This document shows, in pieces, positions 1-16,100 of a stretch of DNA of 17,188 nucleotides; the first letter of the stretch is position 1; each line of letters opens with the position of its first letter. Both the position numbers and the translations under genes were made by a program. The notes under the pieces are model-generated. The model was not told the DNA's origin and ran no database searches. It saw only the letters and a list, made by a program, of their open reading frames with translations. This DNA comes from Oligoflexus sp. GTDB taxonomy: Bacteria > Bdellovibrionota_B > Oligoflexia > Oligoflexales > Oligoflexaceae. The DNA lies in the NCBI GenBank assembly GCA_041736305.1, contig JBGSTX010000063.1, positions 1 through 17,188 of the forward strand. The letters run 5' to 3'.

Positions 1-68
1 TCTTCAAAGCTGATCCCGCGTTCTCGTTTGAGCTGAGTGTTCTTTGCCTCATCCCAGTTTACCCGCAT
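1..68 (-). CDS. BrnT-family type II toxin, 5' part (continues beyond window)
   Basis: Manual translation from ATG at 68: MRVNWDEAKNTQLKRERGISFE..., matching the BrnT N-terminal WDxxKNxxxxxxxGISFE pattern. GGAGG RBS 7 nt upstream. Confidence 0.75.
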   Translation of the reverse strand, partial: MRVNWDEAKNTQLKRERGISFE

Positions 69-97
69 GGACGATCCTCCTGCTTATCGGTAGGAAG

Positions 98-137
98 CAT
101 AACAGTTATTAGACTTTAATCATAACAGTTATGATTA
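98..137. promoter_or_regulatory. Tandem palindromic operator-like site upstream of the BrnT-like gene
   Basis: Perfect 10-bp inverted repeat TAATCATAAC-A-GTTATGATTA at 117-137. Its core CATAACAGTTAT occurs at both 98-109 and 121-132. Confidence 0.55.
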
Positions 138-217
138 TTTATTAATATATTGATATTAATGACATAAAAAACCAAACCTCATAAGCTTACAGTCACTTTA
201 GCGTACCTGAAATGCCG

Positions 218-275
218 GTGAGTAGACCAGAGGGATTTCACCTCTAGCGCCGGGTACAGAGGGCGCCTCTCGATA
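218..275 (-). mobile_element. Possible degenerate group II intron 3' end (domain VI, eroded domain V)
   Basis: Minus strand reads GCTAGAGG-TGAAAT-CCCTCTGG-TCT-A-CTC-AC, a DVI-type hairpin with bulged A and AY end. ATCGAGAGG upstream resembles a DV loop, but the DV stem is not intact. Confidence 0.45.
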
Positions 276-317
276 AAATGAAGCCCCTGGGTTGCCGAAC
301 TTAGTTCGTCACCTAAT

Positions 318-452
318 CTAGATTTTTTGCCTAGATCCGAATAGATAGTGATTGAGTCTGTTATTCTGAATCGTGAGTTTTTCGATTATTTGAAGGAGCT
401 CGTCTTTCGATAGCTCCGCTAAATTCTTTGTTTTTTGGATAGTCTTTTTCAT
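318..452 (-). pseudogene. tnpC: IS66 transposase TnpC, N-terminal fragment (44 aa)
   Basis: Manual translation MKKTIQKTKNLAELSKDELLQIIEKLTIQNNRLNHYLFGSRQKI*. Coiled-coil plus LFGxR motif typical of the TnpC start, directly after IS66 tnpB. DDE core absent. Confidence 0.7.
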
Positions 453-476
453 AGGCGAGTTTCTTAGCAGAGAAAC

Positions 477-836
477 TCAGTCTATGCTCGTAAATTCAAG
501 CGGCTGGTGCATTTTTATTTTGCTTAGATCGACTCCTTGGAGAAGCCATTTCAATTGTTTCTGTGAAATCATGAGTTTGTCATTTTCGCCTTTCTCTGGC
601 CATTTATAGGAGTCTTTTTCGAGTGCCTTGCTCCAGAGTGCAAACCCAGTAAGATCCCAGTAAAGCATGCGTATTCCGTTTCGACGGCGGTTCGAAAAGA
701 CAAAAAGACACCTAGCGTCGATAGGATTTTCTTTCAATACACGTTTTACGATAGAGGAGAGACCGTAGGCCTGTTTTCGGAAGTCGACGGCATCTGTGCA
801 CAAAAATATTTTTGAAAAGTTGCCGACATCTTTCAT
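477..836 (-). CDS. tnpB: IS66 family accessory protein TnpB
   Basis: Motifs VDFRKxxxGL, LFVFSNRRR, LYWDxTGFxLWxKxLE, QLxWLLQG. Confidence 0.95.
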   Translation of the reverse strand: MKDVGNFSKIFLCTDAVDFRKQAYGLSSIVKRVLKENPIDARCLFVFSNRRRNGIRMLYWDLTGFALWSKALEKDSYKWPEKGENDKLMISQKQLKWLLQGVDLSKIKMHQPLEFTSID

Positions 837-1102
837 AGCGGTATCTCCAGAAGAAGACCGTATGAGGTCGAGATGCGCAAGGTCCTGGCGGCAGGCTGAG
901 ACAAGCTTGTTTCCTCCATAACTTCTACAAATGAAAAGTTAGGCAGTGGTTTGGAGGATACAATATCTCTATTTTTCCTCAGCCAGTTATGAAAGGTAGA
1001 GATGCTAAGTGAGTGCTCACAGCAAAATTCCGCCTGAGTCAGACCACTTTTATGGAATTCTAAAATTATATTTTTAATCTGGGTTGGTGTTCTTTTCTTC
1101 AT
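833..1102 (-). CDS. tnpA: IS66 family accessory HTH protein TnpA
   Basis: SGLTQAEFCxEHSLSISTFHNW helix-turn-helix and FVEV motif. 4-nt overlap with tnpB. Confidence 0.88.
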   Translation of the reverse strand: MKKRTPTQIKNIILEFHKSGLTQAEFCCEHSLSISTFHNWLRKNRDIVSSKPLPNFSFVEVMEETSLSQPAARTLRISTSYGLLLEIPL

Positions 1103-1141
1103 GAGTTCCTTCCATCTTTTCTAGTGAAAAGATCTTATCAC

Positions 1142-2200
1142 TCAGAAGATCCCGATCGATAGCCGTCGCTTTATGAGGCGCTCACGGCCTTGCAGCTTGT
1201 AGAGTTTATTGCCGAACATCACTGTGTGATCCCTCCTGACTTTGCGTTCGTACTTCATGCAGAAAATATGGTCGAGATTAATTCCCTGGGCAAGCTGTCG
1301 GTAGCGGCTTTGAGGGTCACGTGCAGTTACGGTATTTCGCTCCAGCCAGTAGTTTGGTATAAAGTGTTTCTGTAAGTATTCGTTGGCAGCGCCCAGGGCT
1401 TTGATACCGTTAATTCGAAGTTCCGGTATCAGGCGGTCCTGGAACGTCTGCCACGTTCTTTCAATCCTGCCTTTAGCCTGGGCTGAGTTTGCAAAAATAA
1501 CCCTCACTTCTAACTCATCGCACGCCCGCCCAAACTGGAAGAAATGTTGTCTCTTTAAACCACCAAACCAACCGGCATGATCGACGTAAAGTGCCTCAGG
1601 AATGCCTCGAATCTCGATAATCCTTCGCAAGACTGTCATGCAGTTTATTGTGTCTTCACTACGAAAAAACTCAGCGTAAGGTATATCACTCGTTGCATCA
1701 TCAATAGCTGCTATCAAGACCCACTCGTCTTGTCCATTCCATTTATGGTGAGAACCATCCATTTGAAGCAGTAGCCCTTCGTTAGCAAGGCGCTCACGAT
1801 ACATGCGCTTTTTGCTGGCTCGCCGTCTCTTGCGCTTGCCAATGCCTGCAGCTCTACACCAGCTACGAAAACTTGAGTAGCTTACGGTTAAGCCATGAAG
1901 CTTTTGCAGCATCTCGAAGCAATGGGTCATATTGAAATCACTGTAAGAGCTAGAAGCTAGCTTGAGCATGGCTTCTTTGAGGCCTTCATCGATCTTGTTA
2001 TGAGGCTTAGACCGAGAGTTGCCGTGCTTAACACCTTCCATACCAAGCTCTCTCACCCTCTTTGCCTTTCTCTGTACTGACTTTTCAGACAGACCCAGGA
2101 GCATCGATGCCTCCTTTCGGGAAATTCTTCCCGCTCGGTAATCTTCGATGATCCTGAAGAGATACTGCTCGTTCTTTGACATTGAAATTGTCCCATCCAT
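1142..2200 (-). pseudogene. ISNCY/IS1202-family DDE transposase, C-terminus interrupted by IS66
   Basis: N-terminal HTH, then LLQMDGSHHxW, AIDDATS, ALYVD and QAKGRIER. The last ~14 codons (RERLIKRRLSIGIF) come from the IS66 end at 1185. Confidence 0.85.
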
Positions 2201-2234
2201 GGAACCTCCCTTTATCCAATGACTTTTTGGAATA

Positions 2235-2305
2235 AAGACAGATTCTAGCCTAGGGGACAGAATCGCTTGAGAATTAGAGGGGGACAGAGTCGCTTGCTAA
2301 TTACA
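2235..2305 (-). repeat. IS1202-type left end: TGT terminus with subterminal repeats
   Basis: Minus strand begins TGTAATTAGC at 2305. Plus-strand repeats GGGGACAGA(A/G)TCGCTTG at 2253-2269 and 2280-2296, with a degenerate third copy near 2235. Confidence 0.8.
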
Positions 2306-2439
2306 GTTTGACAGCCGAAGGAACGCCCGAACTAGCTCGTCTATCTCACCTTATTTATTAAACAATTCAGATGTTCTATGCGAAACCGCAAATAATGCCG
2401 ATGTATCTCAAGTAGCTCGTGATGCGACTGGGGAGTACT

Positions 2440-4152
2440 ATGCGACAAGAGTCTGGGAATATTACACTGGCCGTAGTCTTAGGGATTGCCGGGACGATAG
2501 GAGCCCTCTATCAGTTCAAGAGTGTGTCGCATTCTATCCGCGAAGTAGAGAGGCAAAGGGTCAGCTCTGAGGGCGAATCGCAAGTCCTTTCCAATCTCAA
2601 TCGCTATAGAGGTTTGCTCGGTTCGAACGGCCTCAATGCGTTTGCCATCTATCCCGAACCTTATCTGAAGGCGGATACGCAGCTAGCGCAGTTTGGGACT
2701 CACTTGGCTTTCCAAAGTAGCTTCAATATCGGCACGCAGACCGTCCAGCTCACGCAAGCTGAAAGTCGCCAAATCACAGAACCACAGCTCACCAGAATCA
2801 TGACCGGCGCGATGAAGCCTAATGATCTCTGCCAAGATGCTAATTGTGCGAAAAGCAAAATCAAGCTGATTAGCTTCAACCGTGACACCAGCGGAACAGT
2901 CCCTGAACGCATCCTCTCGGCCAACGTCGAAGTCAAAACCGAGGTGATCGATCCCAGAACAAAAAAGCCCGTAGAAAAAACCATGATCGCGCAAGTGCCG
3001 ATGGAGGCACCACAGGTTAGCACAGCAATTCTCCGACTGTCCGAAGCTCCGAAAGGGGTGGCTGGAAAACAGCTTGCAGCCGTAAACCTCAGCAGCAAAT
3101 CGCAAACGGTAAAAGTGGGAAGTCCTGAATTATCGGCAGAACTAATCGTCGGCGGAGTAGCTGTCTCTGCCGAAATATCAATCTTGGAGCAGAACAAAAC
3201 CTACAGCAGTGATGATAAGGACCAATGGGGCTTGGACGAAGAAGGTTTCCCAAAACATGGCGCTGTATCCATCAGAAACCAGGGCAGCAGGCTTGTGCAT
3301 ACCCCCGTCTTCACTGTCGAGCACGGAATACAATACACCATTGTCGGCCGTATCATTTCGGTCGATTCGAGTGCATCAAATCCCGAACTTCGCCTCATTT
3401 TGGATGTCGCATTACCCCCTCCTCCCGATCCTGCGACCTGTAAAAAAGAGTGCGCAGACAAAGCTCGCTGGTATGACGGCCCCTATAAAGGCAGCACTCC
3501 AGGCTCCTATGCTACGATGGTTCCCGGCAAATACAGTTGCATGTACAACGATGGAATCCCAGGCGGCGATCCTGTCTACTCGTTCGATCCAGCCAAAAAT
3601 TGCGAGAAGGAAGGCCCCATTGGCTTTCGCACGCCTGAAACTGGCTGTTTTGTGGGTAATACACCTATCCGCATGGCAGATGGTCGATACAGGCCCATAT
3701 CGGAAATCGTTGTAGGCGATATGCTTTGGAATCCAATTTTGAAGCGTGGATTTGCCGTCAAAAAAGTAATCGTCGGTCCAGAGACGGGCCAGCTTCTGCG
3801 TATCAGCTACGCAGGCCGGCGCGAGCTGCTCGTGACGCCGGACCATCCCTTTCTCGATCGTTTCGGGTCAGTTGTAGAAGCACGAAATTTGAGCAGCATC
3901 GTTACGAATGAAGGATTAAATTCGCCGCTTTCTCTGGAATGGGATCTCAATACGGAAGCGCAGGCCGTCTTCAACCTGGAAATGGATGCCCCTTCTTCCG
4001 ATCGTGACGCTCATTTCATCGATGCTAACGGAACGATCGCAGGGGATCATAGCTTGCAGAGCCAAATCAAATCTAGGAATGTCGAGGCATTTACTCCAGA
4101 CGCAGAGCGCTGGAGCACGCTCGATCTCGATTTCACTCGTTTAGAACTGTAA
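2440..4152 (+). CDS. PilX/GspK-like prepilin-anchored protein with C-terminal Hint (Hedgehog/intein) domain
   Basis: Likely start ATG 2440 (GGGGAG RBS). N-terminus MRQESG|NITLAVVLGIAGTIGALY is a class III-like signal without Glu5. Poly-Pro linker and 4-Cys region follow, then G|CFVGNTPIRMADG...I.EIVVGD, block B VTPDHPF, VFNL, FIDANG. Confidence 0.8.
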   Translation: MRQESGNITLAVVLGIAGTIGALYQFKSVSHSIREVERQRVSSEGESQVLSNLNRYRGLLGSNGLNAFAIYPEPYLKADTQLAQFGTHLAFQSSFNIGTQTVQLTQAESRQITEPQLTRIMTGAMKPNDLCQDANCAKSKIKLISFNRDTSGTVPERILSANVEVKTEVIDPRTKKPVEKTMIAQVPMEAPQVSTAILRLSEAPKGVAGKQLAAVNLSSKSQTVKVGSPELSAELIVGGVAVSAEISILEQNKTYSSDDKDQWGLDEEGFPKHGAVSIRNQGSRLVHTPVFTVEHGIQYTIVGRIISVDSSASNPELRLILDVALPPPPDPATCKKECADKARWYDGPYKGSTPGSYATMVPGKYSCMYNDGIPGGDPVYSFDPAKNCEKEGPIGFRTPETGCFVGNTPIRMADGRYRPISEIVVGDMLWNPILKRGFAVKKVIVGPETGQLLRISYAGRRELLVTPDHPFLDRFGSVVEARNLSSIVTNEGLNSPLSLEWDLNTEAQAVFNLEMDAPSSDRDAHFIDANGTIAGDHSLQSQIKSRNVEAFTPDAERWSTLDLDFTRLEL

Positions 4153-5019
4153 ATGTGGCAAAGGACAGGCAGGGTCGTTGCGCGGAAGATCGATCGTGAG
4201 GCCTGTCTCGTTAACGAGCGCCGCCATGGATCCGATGAGGAGATTAGATTGACTGATCTTCTCGCTCACCTCTGCAGCTTCCTTCGCCGAAACAGACTGC
4301 TGGCTTAGAACTTGGTTCAGGCCCTTGGCATTGCGCGCCTCGGAACGCGAGGTATCAAGAAGTGCAAGCTGCTCTCCTTCCTGAATATACTGAAAATAGT
4401 ACACGCGGTCGGAACCGGGTTCAGGGTTTTTCAAGACTTGGTTGATATCGGTCACTGCCGCTGTCGAACAGGAATTGCTGCCCCGGGAGTTGCTGCATAG
4501 ATAAAGGCCCAGGGAACGAGGTTCTGCCGTCTGCGTGGTTTCGGCTTTCCAGCGCAAGATAAACGCGGAATTCGTGATATTGGTAACATCAATCTTTTGA
4601 AAGATGAGATTCTTGCGCTTGCCCATATCTTCCAGACTCAGGGCTAGACTATTGGGACTGCGGCGCTTCTGATCGATGCGAATCAGGTCCAGATCGCCAG
4701 CCTCACATTTCTTCACTGTTGACTTGAATCGGACCTTCACTTCCCAAAAGCCATTTTTTTTCGCGAAGGGGAGTCTTTTGAGGCCGATTTGCCGCATGAT
4801 TCCGGCAATCTTTTGATCCTTGGCTCCTACGTCTGGCGACATGGAATTCGGAGCAGGGTCAGGTAAGATCTGCGGATCAACATCGGCAGCACTTGCAGGG
4901 CCCTTTTCAGATTGGGCAAGTTTCGGATTCTTGGCATCTTTATTGATGATCTTATTAAAAAAGCTCACGAGAAAAGCTACGAAGGACACTATAGCTACAA
5001 TCGTGAGTAACTTTTTCAC
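4141..5019 (-). CDS. Hypothetical N-terminally membrane-anchored protein (4 Cys)
   Basis: Long ORF (track 4141-5088). GTG at 5019 gives MKKLLTIVAIVSFVAFLVSFF, a basic tip plus TM helix. 3' end overlaps the Hint gene by 12 nt. No recognised family. Confidence 0.7.
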   Translation of the reverse strand: MKKLLTIVAIVSFVAFLVSFFNKIINKDAKNPKLAQSEKGPASAADVDPQILPDPAPNSMSPDVGAKDQKIAGIMRQIGLKRLPFAKKNGFWEVKVRFKSTVKKCEAGDLDLIRIDQKRRSPNSLALSLEDMGKRKNLIFQKIDVTNITNSAFILRWKAETTQTAEPRSLGLYLCSNSRGSNSCSTAAVTDINQVLKNPEPGSDRVYYFQYIQEGEQLALLDTSRSEARNAKGLNQVLSQQSVSAKEAAEVSEKISQSNLLIGSMAALVNETGLTIDLPRNDPACPLPHLQF

Positions 5020-5052
5020 AAGAACCCCATTTCTTTCTTTGTCTATTAAATA

Positions 5053-5061
5053 TGATATACT
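5053..5061 (+). promoter_or_regulatory. Possible extended -10 promoter (TGnTATACT) for the pilin pair
   Basis: TGATATACT in the AT-rich divergent spacer, about 45 nt before ATG 5105. Confidence 0.3.
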
Positions 5062-5104
5062 TATTTCAAACAGTCTTTCCAGTGCCAATCCCCAAGGAGA
5101 AAGA

Positions 5105-5800
5105 ATGGCGAAGAAGAGCCCAAATCTTCGGGGTCAAGATGGCTTTAATCTTGTGAGTGTTCTCGTGAGCCTAGGGCTCATATCTATGCTTGGGATGCTC
5201 GCAAGCCGCGCATACATCAGTTCCAAGCAGGTAAAACAGTCGTTAAAGGCTGGCGAAAGCTATGAGCAAGTGCAGGACGTTTTGGTCGATTCGTTGAAGA
5301 CCTTTGTAAAAACTAAAGTTTCCAAGTCGGACGATCCCTGCGCCGATCCCAGCGGATTTTTTGGTACGCATCCTTTCCTCAGGAAATTTGAGGGTAAATT
5401 CGAAACCGTCCGTTCAGCTCGCCCTTCTAGTGTCAATGCTAATGCCTGGAATGAGGTCTTCGGTAATGCTTTTAACGCCAAAAGCTTTGCCGGAACAGCT
5501 CTCAATCGCTGCTCTAACACAGAACTAGGAATCAACGGGCGCTTTCATTTTTGCCTAAGTGTTCAGCGCGACGAGAATGCTCCAACGGGGAGCATTTTGC
5601 GATCACCCTTCGCATTTGTAGAAGTCGCGGTGCAGCTTTTCGATTTGCAGGTAGGTACCCCTATCACTTGTTCGATGTATCTAGAAACTAGCCGAAAAAC
5701 AGCCGGCGCATCGGTCGATTATCTTATGTTTTGGCTCACCGAAAATGGCTCAAATCTGGATCTCAAGAAAAAGAATGGGTCGTTTTATGTCAGCAGATGA
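5105..5800 (+). CDS. Type IV prepilin-like protein (PilV-like minor pilin, Ser at +5)
   Basis: AAGGAG RBS, then MAKKSPNLRGQDG|FNLVSVLVSLGLISMLGMLA. 4 Cys in the head domain. The upstream part of track ORF 4820 is antisense shadow. Confidence 0.82.
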   Translation: MAKKSPNLRGQDGFNLVSVLVSLGLISMLGMLASRAYISSKQVKQSLKAGESYEQVQDVLVDSLKTFVKTKVSKSDDPCADPSGFFGTHPFLRKFEGKFETVRSARPSSVNANAWNEVFGNAFNAKSFAGTALNRCSNTELGINGRFHFCLSVQRDENAPTGSILRSPFAFVEVAVQLFDLQVGTPITCSMYLETSRKTAGASVDYLMFWLTENGSNLDLKKKNGSFYVSR

Positions 5801-6509
5801 TGAACGAGGTTTCAGCCTGATCGAAATGTTAGTCGCCACGCTCTTAGCTGGATTTTTAGCTTGGCTGGGATCTAGCTTTTTTACGAAGCAGCAAAAATTG
5901 ACAGCAAGCCAGGACGCGCGCGATGAAGCTGTAAAGACGAATAAGTACCTAGCCAACATTCTGCGGCGGGATCTGCTATTCGCGCTGGCGCCTGAAGATG
6001 TTGTCGTCAATTCTCTTCATGACATCACCATCAAGCGTCCCAAACGTCAGCTAAGCGGATCCAAGCCTGATCCTACCCAGATCTACGAGGTGAGGTATCG
6101 GGCTGTTTGCGCGAAGGTACCTCCCGATCTGACCACGACCTTAGGTAAGGCGAGCTTTACGACCGTTTCAAATAATGCGCAGACTCGAAGTAGCTGCCTG
6201 AAAACGGCGACTTTGAAATGCTCGGCAGGCACCTTCCCGCAGCTACAGATTGTCTTTCCTAAGGCGCCTGATATTCCGAGTTACAGCGCTTCGCTTTTCC
6301 CTGACTTGAGTGCTACGGGCAGTCGGATAAATCGAGGAATTGCTGGTGTCTTACCTTGTTTTCAACAGAACGGTAGTCAGATCACAGTGGGCTTGGACAC
6401 ATTCAACCTGAAACACGACGGCTCACAAGCTCAATCGCTGGATCTGGTCGCAGAGCGCCTCTTTTTGCTGGTCGGTAACGTCAGCGACATGGTCATCCTG
6501 CAGCAATAG
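5787..6509 (+). CDS. Type IV prepilin N-methylation domain protein (PilW-like minor pilin)
   Basis: MSADDERG|FSLIEMLVATLLAGFLAWLG with canonical Gly-1/Phe1/Glu5, then LRRDL. Overlaps the previous gene by 14 nt. Confidence 0.9.
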   Translation: MSADDERGFSLIEMLVATLLAGFLAWLGSSFFTKQQKLTASQDARDEAVKTNKYLANILRRDLLFALAPEDVVVNSLHDITIKRPKRQLSGSKPDPTQIYEVRYRAVCAKVPPDLTTTLGKASFTTVSNNAQTRSSCLKTATLKCSAGTFPQLQIVFPKAPDIPSYSASLFPDLSATGSRINRGIAGVLPCFQQNGSQITVGLDTFNLKHDGSQAQSLDLVAERLFLLVGNVSDMVILQQ

Positions 6510-6659
6510 AAAACTCAATGCTTCTTTTCCAATCTTAGAAACCTAACGCGCCGCCTGCAGGCACTTCGCAGACTTCCCGACCACACCCCTATCTTAAAAT
6601 CTAAGCTGAACCATCTTCCCTAGCTCATTGAATATGCCAACTCAAGTCATCCGTATGCG

Positions 6660-6810
6660 GGATGGCAGATAGCCGACCGCATGACTCAAAATCTCGTGTT
6701 GGAGGCACTAGATATGGCCGTGAAAGCGAGACGGCCTGCGTCTAGTCCATCATTCAGAACGCGGAAGCCAATACGTTTCCAGAGCCTATCAACGGCGCCT
6801 GTGGCGCTCG
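6660..6810 (+). pseudogene. IS3-family transposase (rve) internal fragment, frameshifted
   Basis: Manual translation GWQIADRMTQNLVLEALDMAVKARRP, frameshift near 6747, then HHSERGSQYVSRAYQRRL (IS3 HHSDRGSQY motif). Confidence 0.85.
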
Positions 6811-6932
6811 CCTCCCGAAGGGACTAGCTGAAGTCGCGATCAATGAACCCATTCGGCCCATTCGTAAGCAATCTTAAACGAACGCAGAAATACCTGATTT
6901 TCTAAGGTAAATTCAGCCGCTTTTTAATGGCT

Positions 6933-6959
6933 TAAGGTTCCAAGAAATCTGTCCGACAT
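6933..6959 (+). promoter_or_regulatory. Sigma28 (FliA)-like promoter
   Basis: TAAG-N15-TCCGACAT, about 65 nt before the GTG start of the large lipoprotein. Confidence 0.5.
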
Positions 6960-7024
6960 AGCTTCTTGTATGGAGAAAGTCCGAGCTTCATTCCTGTGGG
7001 ATGGAGCTCAACTGGGAGACAAAT

Positions 7025-10000
7025 GTGAAGAGAGACTTCCTCATATCTATCATCAAACATTTCCTAGCCGTCTTCCTCGGCTCGGGGCTCCTCTCTGCCT
7101 GCGCCGATGACGTTCGCATCAAGACTTACGGCGGTCAGAAGACTACTTGTAGTCAGGAAGCGAGCAACTGCCCGTCGATCACAGCGATCTCGCCGATTGT
7201 GGCCAAGCCTGGGGCCAAGGTTACGGTTTTTGGCAAGAACCTTCAGTCGAAGGGTACATTCTTTCTCGAAGACAAAGAGATCAGTGTCACTACCGTCGAC
7301 GATGGTACCGTCTTCTTTCTCATGCCTGAGGGCAAACCTGGACTTGCTGACCTTGAGGTAAGAAGCGGTAAAAAGTCCCTCCAAATTAATTCCAGCAGCC
7401 GAAAAATATTCCGGCGTCTGGAAGCTGCCTTTCCTGTAATGACTGCTGATCCCTCACTCGTCTGCAGCAATATTCCCTTCGTTGATGGAACAGGTGAGTT
7501 GCAGACAGGGACCAAAGACTGCTCGGGAAATTATATTGCTTGCCAGGAAGAAGGACAGACCGGATGCGTGCCGGCCACGAAGTTCCAAGCAATCCTGGCA
7601 AACGGACTGGCGCCGAAAATTGTTAGAGGACAGAAAGTGGCTGGCGTCGTCGGCGTGGGTGATGCTTATAGCCCCTGCAATGGCCCTCAGCAGGTAGGCT
7701 GCGTGACCAGCGAAAGCTATAAGTCTATGGATCTATCTGGTGCCTCAAATCTGAGTACAGATCTTACTAGCACTGGTTTTAATGGGGCACTCAAGTCGAA
7801 TGCTAGCTTTGAATTCTGGGATTCTGCGGGTCGCCGTCATCAACTCACAGGTCATATTGAGCTCAAGCCTGAGAACATCCTAAATGGCAAAACCTTGCTA
7901 GGAGTCGCGGGTACCGCGCTCCCTGCACCCCCGAGCTGCTCGAGCGATGGTGAGACGGGCTGCGTTGCGCAGAGTCCTAGCTATGCCGCAGCGGTGAAAG
8001 CTGGAGCTGAATTAAAGATTATAGCGGGACAGACTCTTGCTGGTGTGACAGGAACCGTAAGTTTGCCAGCGGCGAGCAAGGTCCTTAGCGGAACATCTTA
8101 CGGCGGAGGAGGTACAGCCTTAAGTGGAACTCTTTCCTTGCCTTTGGCCTCTAACGTGCGGACGGGTTCTTCGGCCTATGGCGAACCAGGTGCCCTTCTT
8201 ACTCCCTCTTATAGCCCTGATTTCCCCGCTCTTGCCAACGTGCGTGCCAGCGATACGGTCAATGGTGTTGCGGGCAGTCTCGGTGATTGCACAGCCGGCA
8301 ATCAGTCGGGTTGCGTTAGCACGGCTATCTATAAGTCAATGGATCTCAGCGCTGCGGGCACCTCTACCGGCCTTATAGCTGCAAATTTTAATGCCAGTAT
8401 CAATTCTGCCTCTACATTCGAATTTTGGGACGCGAGCGGCACCCGGCATAGTCAAGCGGGTGATGTGGATCTGACAGCAGCCAATATCAAAGATACGATC
8501 GATATTTTCGGAGTGACCGGTACGCTGTTAGGTGCACCCGCCAACTGCTCGAGTGATGGTCAAGGCAACTGTCTGGTAGATGGTGGTAGTTATGCGGCAG
8601 CGGATCTCTCAGGAGCTGCGAGCAAAATCCTCTCGGGGCAAACCCTCGCCGGAGTCGCCGGTAACATCACATTACCAGCGAATGCCAAGGTTCTTTCGGG
8701 AACAAGTTTTGGCGTGGGCGGTACGGGTTCATCGGGAAGTTTGACTTTGCCTCTGGCCTCCAGTGTTCTCTTAGGATCAGGTGCCTATGGTGATTCTGCT
8801 GCGCAGCTAACACCAAGCTATAGTCCCGACTACCCTACTGCCTCGAACGTTTTATCGAGCGATACGGTGAACAGCGTCGGTGGTACCTTGACTCTTCCCG
8901 CTGTCGGTAAAGTTCTTTTGAGCACAAGCTATGGCGTAGGCGGCAACGGTTCAACGGGAACATTAACGCTGCCTACTGCTTCTAACGTCCTCACGGGCTC
9001 AGGCGCTTATGGCGAACCTGGCTCCCAGCTGACCCCGAGCTATAGCCCTGATTTTCCGGCTCTCGCCAACGTGAGGAGCGGTGATACGGTGAACGGCGCC
9101 AACGGAACTTTAGCTGACTGCTCGAGCGATGGAGCTATCGGCTGCGTGGTCGTGGGTCCTACTTATGCAGCGCTTTTGAAGACCGGAGCTGAGGATAAAA
9201 TCATATCGGGGCAGACGATAGGATCGGTGAGTGGTAACGTCACCCTGCCCGCTGTAGGCAAGGTGCTTTTGGCTACAAGCTACGGCGAGAGTGGCACAAG
9301 TTTAACTGGTACGCTCACTCTGCCTGCGGCAGCGAATGTTCTGACGGGATCAGCTGCTTATGGCGATCCAGGTGCTCAGCTGACACCAGCCTATAGCCCA
9401 GACTATCCTACAATCTCAAACGTCCTCTCAAGCGATACCGTGAACGGTGCCGCCGGAACTTTAACTCTGCCCTTGGCCGCTAAAGTCCTCACGGGAACTA
9501 CTTATGGAGTGGCTGGCAACGACTCAACCGGAACCCTGACTTTGCCTGCAGCCTCGAACGTTCTCACGGGCTCTGGCACCTACGGGGAAACAGGCTCACT
9601 CTTGACGCCTAGCTACAGCCCTGACTTTCCCGCAGTCTCAAATGTTTTATCGACAGACACAGTAGATAGCGTCAGCGGAACCTTAACTCTACCTCTCGCT
9701 GCAAAAGTCTTGACGGGGACTAGCTATGGTACAGCTGGCAATGGCTCGACGGGAACTCTAACTCTGCCTGCAGCCTCGAACGTTCTTACGGGCTCGGGTA
9801 CTTACGGGGAAACAGGCTCTCTTCTAACGCCAAGCTACAGTCCTGACTTCCCAGCCGTGGACAACGTTCTTTCGAGCGATACGGTCAATGGCGCCGCTGG
9901 GACTCTTACGCTGCCTCTAGTTTCCAAAGTCCTGACGGGAACCAGCTATGGGGCCTCGGGCAACGGCTCAACCGGAACCTTAACGCTGCCTGCTGCTTCC

Positions 10001-11377
10001 AATGTCCTCACAGGCTCCGGTGCTTATGGAGAGCCTGGCTCGCAGCTAACCCCAAGCTACAGTCCCGACTTCCCGGCTCTCGCTAATGTAAGGACCATTG
10101 ATACAGTCAATGCCGCGGCCGGAACTCTAGCCGACTGCAATGCAGGTAACCTGGCAGACTGCGTCGCGACCTCGACCTACAAGACCATGGACCTCAGCGC
10201 CATGGGTACCGCAACCGGGCTCACCGCAGCTAACTTTGAAACACGCATCGCCACCGCCGCCAACTCGGAATTTTGGGATGCAGCGGGCGCCCGGCACTCG
10301 ATCACAGGCGACGCGGACCTCAGCGTGGACAAAGTCAAAGCTGGTGTTGTGATCCATGGCGTGACGGGCCAATACCCCTCAGCCAGCTATCCTTTAGCCA
10401 GTGATACTGCGGCCACCGATCTCACCAACTTCACCACCCAGCTCACCACCGATGGGAGCTTTGAATTCTTCGACAGCGCCGGCGCAAAATTCACCGGCAG
10501 CGGCGACAGTGAGCTCGTAAACAGTAATATTAAAAATGCCGTTGCGATCGAGAGCCTCAGCCTGACCGGCAACTATGTCGCAACTCTGACCTGCCCAACG
10601 GGCTGGATCAAAGTTCCCGGCGATAGCGCCTATGGAACAGGCGATTTCTGCGTGATGAAGTATGAAGCCAAGGATGTCTCGACTGTAGCAACTTCGCAGG
10701 CGGCCTCGACGCCTTGGGTCTCCATTACGCAGACCGCTTCGATTACGGCCTGCCGGGCCCTTGGCACAGGCCACGATATTATCTCCAATGCCCAGTGGAT
10801 GACCATCGGCGCTAACGTAGCCGGCATCAATGGCAACTGGACAGGTGGTACGGTTGGAAGTGGTTATCTCTTCGCCGGACATTCCGACGGTAGCCCCAAC
10901 TCAGCTTGCGCAGCTTCCAGCAATGACACTGACTTTTATGTTGAGACCAACTGCACGGCAGTCAGCTCGGGAGATGCGACTGAGCAAAGGCGAACCCTTA
11001 CTCTATCAAACAGCGCTGTGATCTGGGATCTCCCGGGCAATGTCTCGGAATGGGTCTATTACGTGAATGTTGGAGATAAACCCGGTGCGACTTATGCTTG
11101 GTATGAGTACACGGCCGTTACTGGAACCACGACAACTCCGCTCAAGGATCTGGTCCCCACAAACGCTGTCAAAACGTTTTGGATAAACACGTGGAACTCT
11201 GGAAACTTGATTGGCCAGTTTTACCCCGGGCCCAACGGTACTGGAGGCGTCCTCCACCGCGGCAGTGATTGGGGCGGTGGCTCGACAGCCGGGGTGTTCT
11301 CTGCGAATATGGTCGAAATCCCTTCGTTTTCGAACACGAACCTTGGCACCCGCTGTTCTAGGACAGCCTGGCCTTGA
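7025..11377 (+). CDS. Large repeat-rich lipoprotein adhesin candidate: IPT/TIG, fibre-like repeats, C-terminal FGE-sulfatase/C-type lectin domain
   Basis: GGGAG RBS and GTG 7025 (track start 7001), lipobox LSA-C. IPT/TIG: PSITAISP..PGAKVTVFGKNL. CxxDGxxxC and FEFWDxxG modules. From 10592: CPTGWIKVPG, FCVMKYEAK, PWVSITQ, IWDLPGNVSEW, RGSDW, GTRC. Confidence 0.85.
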   Translation: MKRDFLISIIKHFLAVFLGSGLLSACADDVRIKTYGGQKTTCSQEASNCPSITAISPIVAKPGAKVTVFGKNLQSKGTFFLEDKEISVTTVDDGTVFFLMPEGKPGLADLEVRSGKKSLQINSSSRKIFRRLEAAFPVMTADPSLVCSNIPFVDGTGELQTGTKDCSGNYIACQEEGQTGCVPATKFQAILANGLAPKIVRGQKVAGVVGVGDAYSPCNGPQQVGCVTSESYKSMDLSGASNLSTDLTSTGFNGALKSNASFEFWDSAGRRHQLTGHIELKPENILNGKTLLGVAGTALPAPPSCSSDGETGCVAQSPSYAAAVKAGAELKIIAGQTLAGVTGTVSLPAASKVLSGTSYGGGGTALSGTLSLPLASNVRTGSSAYGEPGALLTPSYSPDFPALANVRASDTVNGVAGSLGDCTAGNQSGCVSTAIYKSMDLSAAGTSTGLIAANFNASINSASTFEFWDASGTRHSQAGDVDLTAANIKDTIDIFGVTGTLLGAPANCSSDGQGNCLVDGGSYAAADLSGAASKILSGQTLAGVAGNITLPANAKVLSGTSFGVGGTGSSGSLTLPLASSVLLGSGAYGDSAAQLTPSYSPDYPTASNVLSSDTVNSVGGTLTLPAVGKVLLSTSYGVGGNGSTGTLTLPTASNVLTGSGAYGEPGSQLTPSYSPDFPALANVRSGDTVNGANGTLADCSSDGAIGCVVVGPTYAALLKTGAEDKIISGQTIGSVSGNVTLPAVGKVLLATSYGESGTSLTGTLTLPAAANVLTGSAAYGDPGAQLTPAYSPDYPTISNVLSSDTVNGAAGTLTLPLAAKVLTGTTYGVAGNDSTGTLTLPAASNVLTGSGTYGETGSLLTPSYSPDFPAVSNVLSTDTVDSVSGTLTLPLAAKVLTGTSYGTAGNGSTGTLTLPAASNVLTGSGTYGETGSLLTPSYSPDFPAVDNVLSSDTVNGAAGTLTLPLVSKVLTGTSYGASGNGSTGTLTLPAASNVLTGSGAYGEPGSQLTPSYSPDFPALANVRTIDTVNAAAGTLADCNAGNLADCVATSTYKTMDLSAMGTATGLTAANFETRIATAANSEFWDAAGARHSITGDADLSVDKVKAGVVIHGVTGQYPSASYPLASDTAATDLTNFTTQLTTDGSFEFFDSAGAKFTGSGDSELVNSNIKNAVAIESLSLTGNYVATLTCPTGWIKVPGDSAYGTGDFCVMKYEAKDVSTVATSQAASTPWVSITQTASITACRALGTGHDIISNAQWMTIGANVAGINGNWTGGTVGSGYLFAGHSDGSPNSACAASSNDTDFYVETNCTAVSSGDATEQRRTLTLSNSAVIWDLPGNVSEWVYYVNVGDKPGATYAWYEYTAVTGTTTTPLKDLVPTNAVKTFWINTWNSGNLIGQFYPGPNGTGGVLHRGSDWGGGSTAGVFSANMVEIPSFSNTNLGTRCSRTAWP
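8057..10126 (+). repeat. Seven 222-bp (74-aa) intragenic repeats in blocks of 1, 2 and 4
   Basis: Unit LTLPxxxKVLxGTSYG...TGTLTLPxASNVLTGSGxYG...LTPSYSPD(F/Y)PxxxNVxSxDTVNxxxGT at 8057-8278, 8666-9109 (x2) and 9239-10126 (x4). Confidence 0.92.
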
Positions 11378-11463
11378 GTGCGCACCTCTCTCGCTATTCA
11401 CAGTTTTAATTTTAGCCACTTAGCAAGTATTATGCAATTTGCTATATCGACAATACAAATTGC

Positions 11464-11481
11464 CTGTAGGAAATCCAAAGC
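11464..11481 (-). mobile_element. ISCR/IS91 oriIS-like terminus
   Basis: Minus-strand GCTTTGGATTTCCTACAG resembles the ISCR oriIS end (GCGTTTGAAxTTCCTAT). It lies about 200 nt downstream of the transposase stop. Confidence 0.6.
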
Positions 11482-11679
11482 ACACTACCGCTTTCGGCTA
11501 TTAATGGGAATTCCAGTTAAATTGCCGCAATCTTCCCCATTCTTCCGCGCAGAATCCTTCTTCTACGAAGTCAGAACATTGTGGTTATAGCTTTTGAAGA
11601 TTGATATTTCGTTGTATTTTCATGGCTTTAGATGGTTAGACAAAATTATTCAATCCAAGCAAGGCCCTTTTCGGCCCCC

Positions 11680-12448
11680 TCAGCACCACTCTTCATTCGC
11701 GACGCTCATTTTGACTCCAGCCCGCGAAGGCGGAGCAGCAGGCATGCCTGTATGTTTGAGATAACGTGCGATCTGGATAGGATCAAGGACCGCCGCAATG
11801 ATTTCCAGTTCACTCTTGCAGCGGGGACATCGTGAAACATCGATGGCGAAGACCCGCTTTAAGAGCCGCGCCCAACTGCCAGAGGTGACTTTGTTTTTTG
11901 TGGATTTTTCAGCGCCTTGTGGCCCCAGCGACACCTTGCGTTTACGCCTTCCACGAACCAGGATTATTTCATCACGGCGTTTGAACTTAGGAGCAAACAC
12001 CCCACCGTAGCGTACGAGCGGACTTGAACGGGGAGGTATCAGAGCGATCAGTTTTTCGATTAGCTCTGATGGGCTTAATTGAATGCCAATGGTGCTATCA
12101 TTCCAAGCGTCTTTAAGCTTATAAAGGATATCGCCAGTGGCTGTTCTCTCCAAGCGATCCTCGGCAATAGGAGGGCGGGCCATATAATTGATCAACTGGC
12201 TCAAATTCCGCCTTTCTTCACGGACCACCCCGGCGCGCAGCATGCAGACTAAAACCTGATAGGGCTATGCACTGGGGGCCCTTGAATTCCATGACATCCC
12301 CCTCCCGGCGAAAGCCGACTCGCCTCACCCGCTGGCCACGACGTTCCCCAAAGGCGATCTTTTGCGTTACCGAGGCGCGGCTCGCCGCCTCGACGCTCTG
12401 CAAATCTTCCGGGATGAACAGGGGAAAGTCCTTAGAATCAAATGGCTT
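11680..12448 (-). pseudogene. IS91/ISCR-family rolling-circle transposase, C-terminal fragment with frameshift
   Basis: GFSLHA, frameshift near 12240, then LxxYMARP, ELIEKLIALIPP..LVRYGGVFAP, WARLLKRVFAIDVSRCPRC. N-terminal zinc-binding and HUH parts missing. Confidence 0.9.
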
Positions 12449-12521
12449 TTAAGCTAAGCCTTTTAGCTCCATCTCAGAGGTAGCAACCTCACCTAGGTCT
12501 CCCCCAGTAGAAAATTTAGAC

Positions 12522-12548
12522 TCAAGTAATGACCTCGACTGCCGACAG
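12522..12548 (+). promoter_or_regulatory. Sigma28 (FliA)-like promoter
   Basis: TCAAG-N14-GCCGACAG, about 135 nt upstream of the second lipoprotein start. Confidence 0.5.
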
Positions 12549-12683
12549 GGTAAAACCTGCTCTTGTGCAATTTTAGAGAGCGTCTTCAGGTCCGTTTGAT
12601 ATTTTACAGCTACTTCTCCCAAATGAAGTGCAGTTGACGAACACGGACAATGTTAACGGCATGGATTGTTAAGGAGTTCAAAA

Positions 12684-15600
12684 TTGAACACTCCCAAAAT
12701 GCTACAATTAACTTTGACACTTCTCGTGATCATGCTCATCTCTCAAGCATGCTTCATCGTCAATTCCTCATCGGGTAAGGTCACCTATAGAAGTCCAAAA
12801 GCAAATGTTTTAAGCATTTCATCCACAAAAGATGATGCTTCGAAAGATGTGAGCATTTCTGTGCCCCCGGATTTACTCGAGCTGGCTGGGCAGTTGAATA
12901 TTGAAGAAGGGGCGACAGTCGCCAGCGAATCACTGGCAGCAGCTTTAAATATAGGCGAAGGACTTCAGAGCGCTGGTCCTTCGATCAACGTCTCGGCTCA
13001 ATCCTTCAGTGATGTTTCCCAGATTGGTCGCCTTGAGCTTTCGATTCCCTACACTCAAGTTGCTTCCCTGGCCTTAGCCAGCGGCTTTCTTGCCATCGTC
13101 TACCAGGTCTTAGACCTTGATGGCAAAGTGCTCATCGGCCTTATTCCCTCTTCGAACTTTGCTGTACAAGAAAGCTTCATCAAGTTTAAAATGCTCGGCC
13201 TTGGCAGTTACCAGGTGGTCCGTGTTCCTGTAGAAATCAAAGAAGAGATTAAAGTTAAGACCGAGGAAACTAAGATCCTGACCAAAGTCGAGCAAGAAGT
13301 CCTGCCCGCTCTCAGTCTCGCGAGCATCAACCCCATAATCGCCAGAAAGGGTGAGCCGATCAGCATTAGGGGGCAGAACTTCCGCGCCACAGTGAAACTA
13401 GCCTACCTTGGTCGCCCCTTAACTCAGATTCAGATAAAATCCGATCAGCTACTCACCGCCGTGATCGAGGATGCCCCTCGGCGTGGACAAGCCATGCTTT
13501 ATGCAAGCCAAGATGGGGTGGAGAAGGTGATGTCTCTAGCTTTTGCTGGCGCCGCGGGGGACTTTCCCTTGATCACACTCGCTGCCAATGAGGTCTGCTC
13601 GGGACAAAAGTTTTATAATGCCAATGGAGATCTGCTTGAAGGCAGTAAGAGTTGTGGCTTGGCTACTGCCTGTTCGAGCGATGGCCAAACGAATTGCACG
13701 GCGAGCACCTTGTTTCCGGCAGTACAGTCGAGCTTGGTCAGCAGCAAATGTATGCTTGGTGAATCGCTAGGCGGCTCGACGGGAGGGGTGACTTTGCCCT
13801 TGGTATCCAAGGTTTTAGTGGGCACGAGCTATGGTGTTTCAACTTCAAGTTTGACCGGTACGCTCACGCTGCCTCTAGCGGCAGATGTAAGGGCGACGAG
13901 CGCCGCTTATGGTGATCCCACAGCATTGCAGACACCAAGCTACTCGAGTGGTGGAGCTTCGAATTGCAACATTGATGGCGATGTATCTTGTCTAGTCGAT
14001 GGCACAAATTTTAAAGCAGCCCTGATTGCAGGAGCGGCTGCGAAGATTATTACAGGCCAAACGCTGGCTGGGCAGAACGGTACTGCAGCTGCAGCACCAG
14101 CAAACTGTGGGACGAACGGCGGGCAGTCCTGCGTGGCGACCGGTGCCTACTTTGCTGCTACAAGCTGTTCGGCTAATGGTTCAAATTGCTTTTTGCCGCA
14201 GTTCGTGACTTCGACTCAGCCCTTGAAGGCGATCAGTTATGATGCCATAGACGCGGGTAAAGCTTCAATTCGTAGCTCGCTCACGCTTTCCGGTATCACC
14301 GGGACGCTGGTCAACTGCTCGGCGGGCGGTGAGACCGGATGTGTAACGAACAGCACCTTTAAGTCTATCAACCTCAGTTCTCAGGGGAGCAATAGTTCCT
14401 CGGGCCTTACTGCTGCCAACTTCAATACAAAACTGGCTACGACAGGTAACTTCGAGTTTTGGGATGCGAGTGGAACCCGCCATGAGAAGGCAGGCGACAC
14501 GGACCTTGCAGCGGCGAATATCGCCACTAGCGTTGTGATCCATGGCGTCATCGGATCGGCTGATCTCGAATCGCATAGCGCGTGTGGAGCTGCGAATCAG
14601 ATGGGATGTGTAGCAACCAGTACGTACAAAACGATGGACCTTAGTACTGTGGGGGCCTTCACAGGGCTTACCGGGAGCAACTTTCCAAGTCGCATCACGA
14701 ACGCGGATAGTAGTGAGTTCTGGGACGCGACCGGTAACAAGCACAGCTTCGCTGGTGATCCAAATTTGACTGTTGAAAATATCAAGTCTACTGTAACGAT
14801 TCTCGGCGTGACGGGGCAGTATCCTTCCGCCACCTTTCCTTTGGCTGCCAATACTAGTGCGCCGGATCTGACTTCGCTTGAAACACAGCTCAAGATGGAT
14901 GGACCTTTTGAGTTCTTTGACAAGACGGGTGCTGTCTACAACGGAAGCGGTGATAGTGACCTTCTGGATTCGAACATTAAAAGCTTGGTAGCCATCGAAA
15001 ACCTCTCTTTAACGGGAACTTATGTCGCCACTCTTAGCTGCCCTTCCGGGTATATAAAAGTCCCTGGCGATAGTAACTATGGTACGGGTGATTTTTGCAT
15101 CATGAAGTACGAAGCCAAAGATGTCTCAGGCACGGCCACACCCCAGCCGGCAAGCGCCCCGTGGGTGAATGTGACTCAAGCGAATTCTTTGGCCGCATGT
15201 CGTTCTCTTGGACTGGGATATGATCTCGTCAACAATACTCACTGGATGAGTCTCGGCGTGAATGTCGCGAGTGTCGCTAGCAACTGGGTAGGTGCTAGCG
15301 TAGGGTCTGGTCTACTCATATTAGGTCACTCAGACAACAGTCCCAACTCCGCTTGTGCTGCCTCCAGCAATGACACTGAGTATTTTGTAGAAAGTACCTG
15401 CACTCCTCTTAGTACAGGCGATACCGCGGATCAAAGACGAACCCTTACTCTCACCAATGGCAATGTGATCTGGGATCTCTCGGGCAATGTGGCAGAAAGG
15501 GTCATTTACTTCAATTTGAATGACAAGCCGAGCCCGTTAGAAGGTTTCGTTGAATATACAGCTATCACAGCGACTGATTCGACTCCCCTTACGGACCTGA

Positions 15601-15824
15601 TCCCGGAAATTGCCGTTACTAACACGTGGAATTCTTTGCAGGGGATGGGTCAGTTTTATTCAGGACTTAACGGTACGGGAGGCACTCTCAAACGTGGAGG
15701 GTATTGGCTCGATAATATGGGAGGTTCAGGTATCGCTGGGGTATTTCATGCCTATATGAACGATTACCTAACTGATACCTTAGCTGAAACTGGCTTTCGC
15801 TGCATTGCCCCCCCAAGCCCCTGA
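12684..15824 (+). CDS. Paralogous large lipoprotein adhesin candidate: extra N-domain, IPT/TIG, Cys/fibre modules, FGE-sulfatase/C-type lectin tip
   Basis: AAGGAG RBS and TTG 12684 (track start 12666). Signal peptide ends ISQA-C. IPT/TIG: LASINP..GEPISIRGQNF. Same FEFWDxxG and NIxxxVxIxGVTG modules as the first paralog. From 15039: CPSGYIKVPG, FCIMKYEAK, IWDLSGNVAE, RGGYW, GFRC. Confidence 0.85.
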   Translation: MNTPKMLQLTLTLLVIMLISQACFIVNSSSGKVTYRSPKANVLSISSTKDDASKDVSISVPPDLLELAGQLNIEEGATVASESLAAALNIGEGLQSAGPSINVSAQSFSDVSQIGRLELSIPYTQVASLALASGFLAIVYQVLDLDGKVLIGLIPSSNFAVQESFIKFKMLGLGSYQVVRVPVEIKEEIKVKTEETKILTKVEQEVLPALSLASINPIIARKGEPISIRGQNFRATVKLAYLGRPLTQIQIKSDQLLTAVIEDAPRRGQAMLYASQDGVEKVMSLAFAGAAGDFPLITLAANEVCSGQKFYNANGDLLEGSKSCGLATACSSDGQTNCTASTLFPAVQSSLVSSKCMLGESLGGSTGGVTLPLVSKVLVGTSYGVSTSSLTGTLTLPLAADVRATSAAYGDPTALQTPSYSSGGASNCNIDGDVSCLVDGTNFKAALIAGAAAKIITGQTLAGQNGTAAAAPANCGTNGGQSCVATGAYFAATSCSANGSNCFLPQFVTSTQPLKAISYDAIDAGKASIRSSLTLSGITGTLVNCSAGGETGCVTNSTFKSINLSSQGSNSSSGLTAANFNTKLATTGNFEFWDASGTRHEKAGDTDLAAANIATSVVIHGVIGSADLESHSACGAANQMGCVATSTYKTMDLSTVGAFTGLTGSNFPSRITNADSSEFWDATGNKHSFAGDPNLTVENIKSTVTILGVTGQYPSATFPLAANTSAPDLTSLETQLKMDGPFEFFDKTGAVYNGSGDSDLLDSNIKSLVAIENLSLTGTYVATLSCPSGYIKVPGDSNYGTGDFCIMKYEAKDVSGTATPQPASAPWVNVTQANSLAACRSLGLGYDLVNNTHWMSLGVNVASVASNWVGASVGSGLLILGHSDNSPNSACAASSNDTEYFVESTCTPLSTGDTADQRRTLTLTNGNVIWDLSGNVAERVIYFNLNDKPSPLEGFVEYTAITATDSTPLTDLIPEIAVTNTWNSLQGMGQFYSGLNGTGGTLKRGGYWLDNMGGSGIAGVFHAYMNDYLTDTLAETGFRCIAPPSP

Positions 15825-15949
15825 TTTCTGATCATATTAGACGGGGGATCGTAGTCCAAAACATATTTAGCAAAGCTCATACGTGCCCGCCAGGCTTAAG
15901 GGCAGAATTTAGAATGCTACCGCTTGCCAATAGTCCCTTTTTCATCCAA

Positions 15950-16100
15950 CTGCCGCTCCAAAAAACCTATGCAGACCTAGATCTACATAGTATTTGGTAC
16001 TTCGCTCTCCGTTGATGTCCGTTTCCGGCGTGCAACTGGAGTCCGGGAGGGGCGGTTGCGCTCCAAGGGAGCGCTAACTCCTCCGTTGGCAGTTGATCTA
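15950..16100 (-). ncRNA. Probable TnpB omega RNA overlapping the tnpB 3' end (boundaries approximate)
   Basis: Minus-strand stem-loop CTCC-A-GTTG...CCG-GAAA-CGG...CAAC-GGAG at 16041-16007. This is the known position of TnpB guide scaffolds. Confidence 0.5.

Follow-up and report, generated by a model that had tools for sequence, protein, structure and literature searches.

An open reading frame (ORF) at positions 2440-4152 of Oligoflexus sp. contig JBGSTX010000063.1 (assembly GCA_041736305.1) encodes a 570-residue protein in which a pilin-like N-terminus without Glu5 is combined with a C-terminal Hint domain. The window analyzed here is the whole stretch that contains it, positions 1 to 17,188 of the contig. 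We lean towards reading the protein as a minor-pilin-like precursor without Glu5, from which the Hint domain would be shed at G402/C403 (here and below, a slash within a motif marks a putative cleavage site) and which would join a conserved partner protein and neighboring pilins. The strongest argument is the gene context. The Hint fold, the conserved residues, the family, and a predicted interface with the partner also contribute, and they are described first.

A Hint fold in the C-terminal part of the protein was confirmed. The NCBIfam model of the intein N-terminal splicing region (TIGR01445) matched with 27.2 bits, against a cut-off of 24.5. In Pfam, the best Hint-type match was Vint (22.5 bits, below the cut-off of 27), and no other Hint model matched at E ≤ 1. 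When the 62 sequences of the family alignment (see below) were searched at E ≤ 0.01, Vint matched 45/62, PT-HINT 22/62, and Hint_2 8/62, the last two being models that the sequence-only reading of this DNA had proposed for a check. A profile of the family matched the solved bacterial intein-like (BIL) domain of Clostridium thermocellum (E 9.1e-11). Structural comparison led to the same proteins. Searching the PDB by Foldseek with the Hint region gave 54 matches at E ≤ 0.001, and those listed were nearly all inteins, BILs, Vint, or Hedgehog. The best was Tetrahymena BIL2 (E 1.4e-9, TMt 0.75), followed by the gp41-1 intein, the C. thermocellum BIL, and DnaB inteins, and then by Vint and Hedgehog. 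VIA-align superposed the C. thermocellum BIL (2LWY) with a Z score of 18.3 (root mean square deviation of 1.6 Å over 128 residues), and 30 intein, BIL, Hedgehog, or Vint chains had Z scores of at least 8.7. Many of the inteins superposed their residue 1 on C403 and their last residue on D536. Hint look-alikes were also found in the ESM Atlas with residues 331-570.

Judged from its sequence, this is a BIL-like Hint domain that keeps the residues for step 1 of splicing. (Position names and usual intein residues are those in excerpts of PMC4031507.) Four positions carry the residue usual in inteins: Cys1 (C403; Cys or Ser in inteins), Thr B:7 (T466), His B:10 (H469), and His F:13 (H525). The others differ. 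F:4 is N512 where inteins most often have Asp, G:6 is G535 in place of His, G:7 is D536 in place of Asn, and the +1 residue is His in place of Cys, Ser, or Thr. In five orthologs, the residue after D536 was His or Leu, and in none was it Cys, Ser, or Thr. A missing +1 nucleophile is described as a BIL hallmark in the same excerpts (PMC4031507). Therefore, because its end is Gly-Asp and its +1 residue is His, the domain is not an intein even though the step 1 machinery is kept. The criteria for a canonical class 1 intein also exclude it, with its G535-D536 end, its +1 His, and its unconserved tail. A Hint domain with Cys1 and TxxH but with neither a terminal Asn nor a +1 nucleophile had been predicted from the sequence, and TIGR01445, Foldseek, VIA-align, and residue conservation all agree with that prediction. 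Two other kinds of Hint protein were considered and rejected: a mobile intein, because there is no host enzyme, no endonuclease, and no C-extein, and the pretoxin Hint of a polymorphic toxin, because there is no toxin domain and only a nonconserved tail of 34 residues follows the Hint domain.

The features that the sequence-only reading had listed (a Glu5-less N-terminus, PPPPDP, four Cys, G/CF, TPDH, ANGTIAGD, and a tail) are all present where it had placed them. PPPPDP is residues 326-331, and the four Cys are C334, C338, C367, and C388. The Cys1 codon in the ETG/CF motif is TGT at 3646-3648, TPDH is residues 466-469, and ANGTIAGD is residues 529-536, which leaves the 34-residue tail. In the 62-sequence family alignment, C388, P432, H469, A481, V510, and Q540 are invariant, and Y75, P191, C334, C338, C367, R397, G402, C403, T466, N512, H525, G535, and D536 are at least 90% conserved. 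Because of this conservation, the listed features are not there by chance. An AlphaFold2 model of the whole protein, made from the 62 family sequences, had a mean predicted local distance difference test (pLDDT) score of 87.1. In the model, the protein would have four confident parts: an N-terminal helix with a small beta domain, an immunoglobulin (Ig)-like domain, a four-Cys module, and the C-terminal Hint domain. The Ig-like domain had generic Ig-like matches in VIA-align (Z scores of 6.9-8.4).

The family was revealed by an exhaustive HMMER search of 1.84 billion representatives, which found 776 proteins at E ≤ 0.001, 272 at E ≤ 1e-10, and 4 at E ≤ 1e-30. Word-index searches found the protein and two orthologs only, and when residues 390-548 were used alone they returned only the query. 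Full-length orthologs were few: three by phmmer at 37-52% identity, together with a 282-residue fragment at 53%, and two by BLASTP at 51% and 39%. Named orthologs are in Oligoflexus tunisiensis (annotated as "Hint domain-containing protein") and Pseudobacteriovorax antillogorgiicola. Most other hits align to residues ~380-546 alone, at the extreme C-terminus of proteins of 500-700 residues. In a profile search of 131 genomes of the phylum, 95/131 had a family match at E ≤ 1e-5, including 61 of the 83 high-quality genomes, and the family was present in 43 of the 55 genera. Genomes of the source genus had as many as 11 matches each, and the source genome itself has two further full-length paralogs.

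Some relatives differ from the 2440-4152 protein in other ways. In the family majority, the cleavage site reads C-G-C-F, with a second Cys at -2, where the 2440-4152 protein has Thr. We speculate that the Cys(-2)-Cys1 pair might switch periplasmic cleavage on or off according to redox state. One Hint relative (P0024, 401 residues) has a lipoprotein-type N-terminus (LALAC) with a Gly/Asp-rich low-complexity region and no pilin-like body. Its architecture shows that exported scaffolds of other kinds carry the Hint module as well.

The translated N-terminus reads MRQESG followed by NITLAVVLGIAGTIGALYQF, and the residue at +5 after the Gly is Ala, not Glu. Pilins without Glu5, GspK among them, are known exceptions to the Glu5 rule. 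Gly6, immediately before the hydrophobic helix, is at least 90% conserved in a 60-sequence alignment. Among 25 relatives whose N-termini were read by eye, 22 start with a polar leader that is followed by a Gly and a hydrophobic stretch of ~20 residues, and none of these 22 has Glu at +5. (The other three are two fragments and one with a lipoprotein-type start.) A prepilin-like N-terminus lacking Glu5 had been claimed from the sequence, together with a call for a survey of homologs for the pilin-plus-Hint architecture, and these counts bear the claim out. A model of residues 1-199 alone (pLDDT 89.4) has a 53-residue helix (residues 8-60) packed on a sheet. When it was compared by VIA-align with 48,161 chains, the six best were all pilins or pseudopilins: Streptococcus sanguinis PilA (Z score of 6.3), EpsI (6.0), GspI (5.4), XcpV (5.0), and two Thermus pilins (4.8 and 4.7). 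Pilins made up 13 of the 50 matches shown, and XcpX (GspK) had a Z score of only 3.5. In the ESM Atlas, residues 1-330 gave a weak lead to a PilV-type cluster (score of 0.79, under the trust level of 0.9). The source genome encodes a Peptidase_A24 prepilin peptidase (78 bits), T2SSE ATPases, and secretins.

Pilin genes do lie beside the Hint gene, as had been proposed. The product of 5787-6509 matched Pfam N_methyl with 23.5 bits (cut-off of 21.2) and TIGR02532 with 21.2 bits (cut-off of 16.3). The 5105-5800 gene is pilin-like, and its Oligoflexus ortholog has an N_methyl match of 26.6 bits. The O. tunisiensis ortholog likewise lacks Glu5 (G/FSLIS). The same four genes (Hint gene, partner gene, and the two pilin genes) are grouped in O. 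tunisiensis. We then counted across the source genome and a complete genome of the same genus. An N_methyl hit was within 2 kb of 7/8 full-length family members, and 12 of the 29 N_methyl hits in both genomes were within 2 kb of those seven genes. In one of these two genomes (7.6 Mb), five members with 2.5-kb flanks make up about 0.45% of the sequence. About 0.07 of that genome's 15 N_methyl hits would be expected in these flanks by chance, and 7 were observed.

A second gene recurs beside the Hint gene. It encodes a partner protein of ~285-316 residues and was adjacent in 7/11 loci (the window, L001, L003, L008, L010, L012, and L016). There was no partner beside the Hint gene in L004-L007, where the flanks are short. 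The partner carries a membrane helix at its N-terminus and an LP.NDP.C motif at its C-terminus, contains four invariant Cys, and matched no Pfam or NCBIfam family. C107, G110, D111, D113, G173, C177, C186, F211, L280, P281, and C287 are invariant in seven sequences. Complex prediction with residues 30-570 of the Hint protein and 65-294 of the partner scored 0.72, versus 0.38 for the best control. (Among reference cases, 58 of 80 solved complexes attained this mark, as did 2 of 110 mismatched pairs; our own alignments were used for the prediction, so these counts are only approximate.) Contact agreement between runs was at least 64%, and the partner pLDDT was at least 74. Confident contacts were on residues 78, 148-156, 242-270, and 296-306 of the Hint protein, which are in the pilin-like and Ig-like domains, and none was on the Hint domain. 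The Ig-like domain holds most of the predicted interface. This modeling supports binding of the partner to the pilin/Ig body. Binding to the Hint domain was also considered, and it was rejected because the predicted interface is elsewhere.

In the reading we lean towards, the precursor would be exported, and its leader would probably be removed at G6/N7 by the prepilin peptidase of the genome. The Hint domain would bring about an N-to-S acyl shift at Gly402-Cys403, using Cys1, Thr466 and His469, and His525. The thioester would be resolved, most simply by hydrolysis, and a 168-residue piece consisting of the Hint domain and tail would be shed. The mature body of ~44 kDa (pilin domain, Ig-like domain, and disulfide module) would end in Gly402. 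Together with the ~300-residue partner and the two neighboring pilins, it might make up the tip complex or the priming complex of a type IV pilus or pseudopilus.

Several results weigh against this. Asn at +1 is unusual in prepilin-peptidase substrates. No Pfam or NCBIfam pilin family, GspK and PilX included, matched the 2440-4152 protein at E ≤ 1, and Pfam N_methyl (PF07963) matched 0/62 family members at E ≤ 0.01. Foldseek with the pilin-like domain gave no match at E ≤ 0.001, and every pilin match in VIA-align had a Z score below 8, a level that might reflect only a common arrangement. The Hint clusters lie outside pilus-machinery operons, and having two Glu5-less pilin-like genes in one cluster is unusual for tip complexes and fits poorly with a single Glu5-less tip subunit. 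There are also difficulties with the Hint domain. F:4 is Asn512, at least 90% conserved, and the block F Asp that inteins mostly have there is described as assisting step 1 (excerpts of PMC4031507). Therefore, N-terminal activation may differ or be weaker. The same excerpts state that inteins with a terminal Asp can cut on the C-terminal side by cyclization (PMC4031507). D536 could in principle do the same, so cleavage may not be confined to the N-terminal side. Any C-terminal cleavage would matter little, no C-extein being conserved. Finally, one paralog in the source genome has Ser at the Cys1 position, as seen by ungapped extension of a BLASTP alignment. This paralog (508 residues; locus L004, 1246-2772 on the minus strand, G000:C214) has Asp at -1, no four-Cys module, and no GDxxLQ end. 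It adjoins two N_methyl pilin genes.

Alternatively, as in the sequence-only reading, the thioester might be attacked by an amine or hydroxyl, so that Gly402 becomes covalently joined to an acceptor and the tip is cross-linked or "armed." A Lys of the partner or of a neighboring pilin, a lipid head group, peptidoglycan, or a molecule of a target cell might serve. We think this unlikely, but there are reasons to consider it. The best Foldseek match was BIL2, which forms an isopeptide between a Lys epsilon-amine and a C-terminus and, with no need for ATP, attaches a ubiquitin-like domain to substrates (as described in section 2.4 of PMC8616854). The G/CF motif and the C-terminal placement of the Hint domain recall Hedgehog (1at0, Z score of 15.7), and the conservation or invariance of G535, D536, and Q540 goes further than a simple leaving group would require. 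However, no conserved acceptor was identified, the predicted partner interface is far in sequence from G402/C403, and nothing in the variable tail resembles a sterol-recognition region. We give little credence to the further idea of a built-in, enzyme-free ligase, in which the thioester would serve to link a neighboring subunit, the partner, or a molecule of a contacted cell to the C-terminus of a tip pilin through an isopeptide or ester bond.

The tail bears on this directly, because the sequence-only reading had suggested that its ~35 residues choose the nucleophile. In the 62-sequence alignment, the part beyond GDxxLQ is variable in length (about 3 to 35 residues) and shows no conservation, and in the model the tail pLDDT is about 50. 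The suggestion that the tail selects an adduct was therefore rejected. GDxxLQ itself is better read, from the structural models, as this family's form of the final intein block together with the beginning of a helix, because structural alignments to inteins stop at D536, the position of the terminal Asn.

It is also possible, although in our view quite doubtful, that the protein is not a pilus subunit. The N-terminal hydrophobic helix might be a membrane anchor that stays uncleaved, or else a conventional signal sequence, and the protein a periplasmic or surface component of pilin-associated loci, such as an assembly or regulatory factor that the Hint domain merely sheds or matures. The lack of a pilin hidden Markov model match, the absence of Glu5, the Asn or Ser at +1 in most members, and structural pilin matches no better than Z scores of 4.7-6.3 would all fit. 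So would a family member of ~607-631 residues that is always downstream of trpA in three genomes of the genus (L005-L007), where no pilin or partner gene was found in short flanks of ~1.5 kb. (This member also adjoins an ORF for a lipoprotein-like protein of ~150 residues with a C..C.SCHN motif.) However, the Gly before the helix is at least 90% conserved, a 53-residue helix packed on a sheet is pilin architecture, the top six of 48,161 chains were all pilins, and 7/8 members adjoin N_methyl pilin genes. Finally, a catalytically inactive Hint domain, kept as a structural or binding module, seems most improbable: three assisting or catalytic intein positions are replaced (F:4 by Asn, G:6 by Gly, and G:7 by Asp) and an oxidizing periplasm could tie up Cys1, but the step 1 residues are under strong purifying conservation (G402, C403, T466, and H525 at least 90% conserved; H469 invariant), and the divergent paralog has a Cys-to-Ser change, not a loss.

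The protein that we favor as a Hint-processed minor pilin can be compared with several known systems. It resembles the C. thermocellum BIL (PDB 2LWY, type A) in the Hint fold, Cys1, the block B Thr and His, and the missing +1 nucleophile, and in that the bacterial protein carrying the domain is nonessential, paralogous, and exported, not a conserved enzyme. However, it ends in Gly-Asp instead of His-Asn, its Hint domain is at the extreme C-terminus and is followed by no more than a short variable tail, and it is fused to a pilin-like body. It is a BIL in the general sense (no +1 nucleophile, in a non-housekeeping bacterial protein), but not type A, because the end is Gly-Asp in at least 90% of the 62 sequences. 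Nor is it clearly type B, which is described as having no likeness to intein block G (excerpts of PMC4031507): ANGxxxGD keeps the Asn-Gly start of that block and aligns to the last intein residue, and Hint_2 matched only 8/62 members. The lineages of Bdellovibrio and Oligoflexus have traditionally been regarded as related. In predatory bacteria, C-type BIL domains and a PPS-1 domain were reported by Dori-Bachash et al. in 2009 (Funct Integr Genomics 9:153; according to PMC9185962). These are possibly the same Hint subtype, a comparison based on a one-sentence description in that source.

Hedgehog/Hog proteins share the G/CF motif, a Hint domain C-terminal to the cargo, and the lack of a terminal Asn (1at0, as above). 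They release their cargo through a thioester, and a counterpart step would take place in the Oligoflexus protein. However, that protein is bacterial, has a pilin-like cargo, and has no conserved adduct-recognition region after the Hint domain. Tetrahymena BUBL BIL2 (PDB 6TMM/6Y75), its best Foldseek match, is a precedent for Hint-driven isopeptide ligation of an upstream C-terminus, but BIL2 has a terminal Asn (it was crystallized as C1A-N143A, according to the entry title) and sits between ubiquitin-like domains. The likeness to tip minor pilins of the GspK and PilX type is in the Gly followed by a hydrophobic helix without Glu5, in being larger than its neighbors, and in being encoded beside minor-pilin genes. 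In contrast to them, the protein is structurally nearest to GspI-like and small minor pilins (Z scores of 5.0-6.3, versus 3.5 for XcpX), carries Ig-like, Cys-rich, and Hint domains, and has no pilin-family sequence match.

The coordinates of these features and of the neighboring genes are collected in Table 1. The ATG at 2440 was preferred to the GTG at 2419 as the start on the basis of the GGGGAG sequence. A promoter and terminator scan of positions 2200-7000 found sites no more numerous than in shuffled sequence, and positions 2440-6509 had no listed RNA holder.

Table 1. Features of the Hint gene, its product, and its cluster in the window
Feature	Coordinates	Strand	Remarks
Ribosome-binding site GGGGAG	2430..2435	+	5 nt before ATG at 2440; read from sequence
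ORF of pilin-like Hint protein	2440..4152	+	570 residues plus stop, from translation; first gene of cluster
Short polar leader MRQESG, ending in conserved Gly6	2440..2457	+	Putative prepilin-peptidase site G/N
Pilin-like domain	2458..3009	+	Helix 8-60 (first ~20 residues hydrophobic, no Glu5), beta sheet to residue 187; AlphaFold2 model
Ig-like beta-sandwich domain	3016..3417	+	Residues 193-326; VIA-align
PPPPDP linker plus four-Cys module	3415..3645	+	Ends ...RTPETG402; Cys conservation
Hint (BIL-like) domain	3646..4047	+	C403 to D536; profile, Foldseek, and VIA-align matches
C-terminal tail	4048..4149	+	Residues 537-570; HSLQ with invariant Q540, helix to 551, variable low-confidence end
Conserved partner gene	4141..5088	-	Start uncertain, 5025 or 5088
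Pilin-like gene	5105..5800	+	Leader ...RGQDG/FNLVS, Ser at +5, no Glu5; weak NCBIfam hint, E 0.063
Canonical prepilin-type gene	5787..6509	+	...DDERG/FSLIEML; N_methyl, TIGR02532; ORF open from 5745

Downstream of the cluster, two genes on the plus strand (7001-11377 and 12666-15824) encode secreted-looking proteins of 1458 and 1052 residues. Both have an IPT/TIG domain, long runs of a ~40-residue "TLTLP...SYG" repeat, Cys-containing "C..DG..GCV" units, and a common C-terminal domain of ~250 residues. O. tunisiensis also encodes similar giant repeat proteins (L001, 4575-9841), directly upstream of its orthologous Hint cluster. Such proteins might serve this system as cargo or as adhesins. Mobile-element genes flank the cluster (477-2200, 11680-12243, and 15983-17188). 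They include an IS66 Orf2-like TnpB gene (107.9 bits), a small helix-turn-helix transposase ORF, an rve-type integrase gene (below threshold), and a Y2_Tnp fragment, and a Cas12f1-like_TNB (TnpB-type) gene runs off the end of the window.

Self-cleaving Hint domains are well known, and so are minor pilins. The sequence-only reading knew of no characterized pilin-Hint fusion, and our search of titles and the beginnings of abstracts turned up no description of one. The fusion is not an oddity. It occurs in most genomes of the phylum, with several copies in each, in pilin clusters and with a partner of no known family. Should the cleavage take place, pilus subunits would have a new step in their maturation. 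Use of the thioester for ligation would instead offer a novel route to assembling or arming the tip of a pilus. A built-in ligase would mean a Gram-negative pilus with a covalently locked or covalently adhesive tip, and the paralogous clusters in each genome would then be alternative tips. Because there is an ortholog in O. tunisiensis, which is harmless and can be cultured, these ideas are open to experiment.

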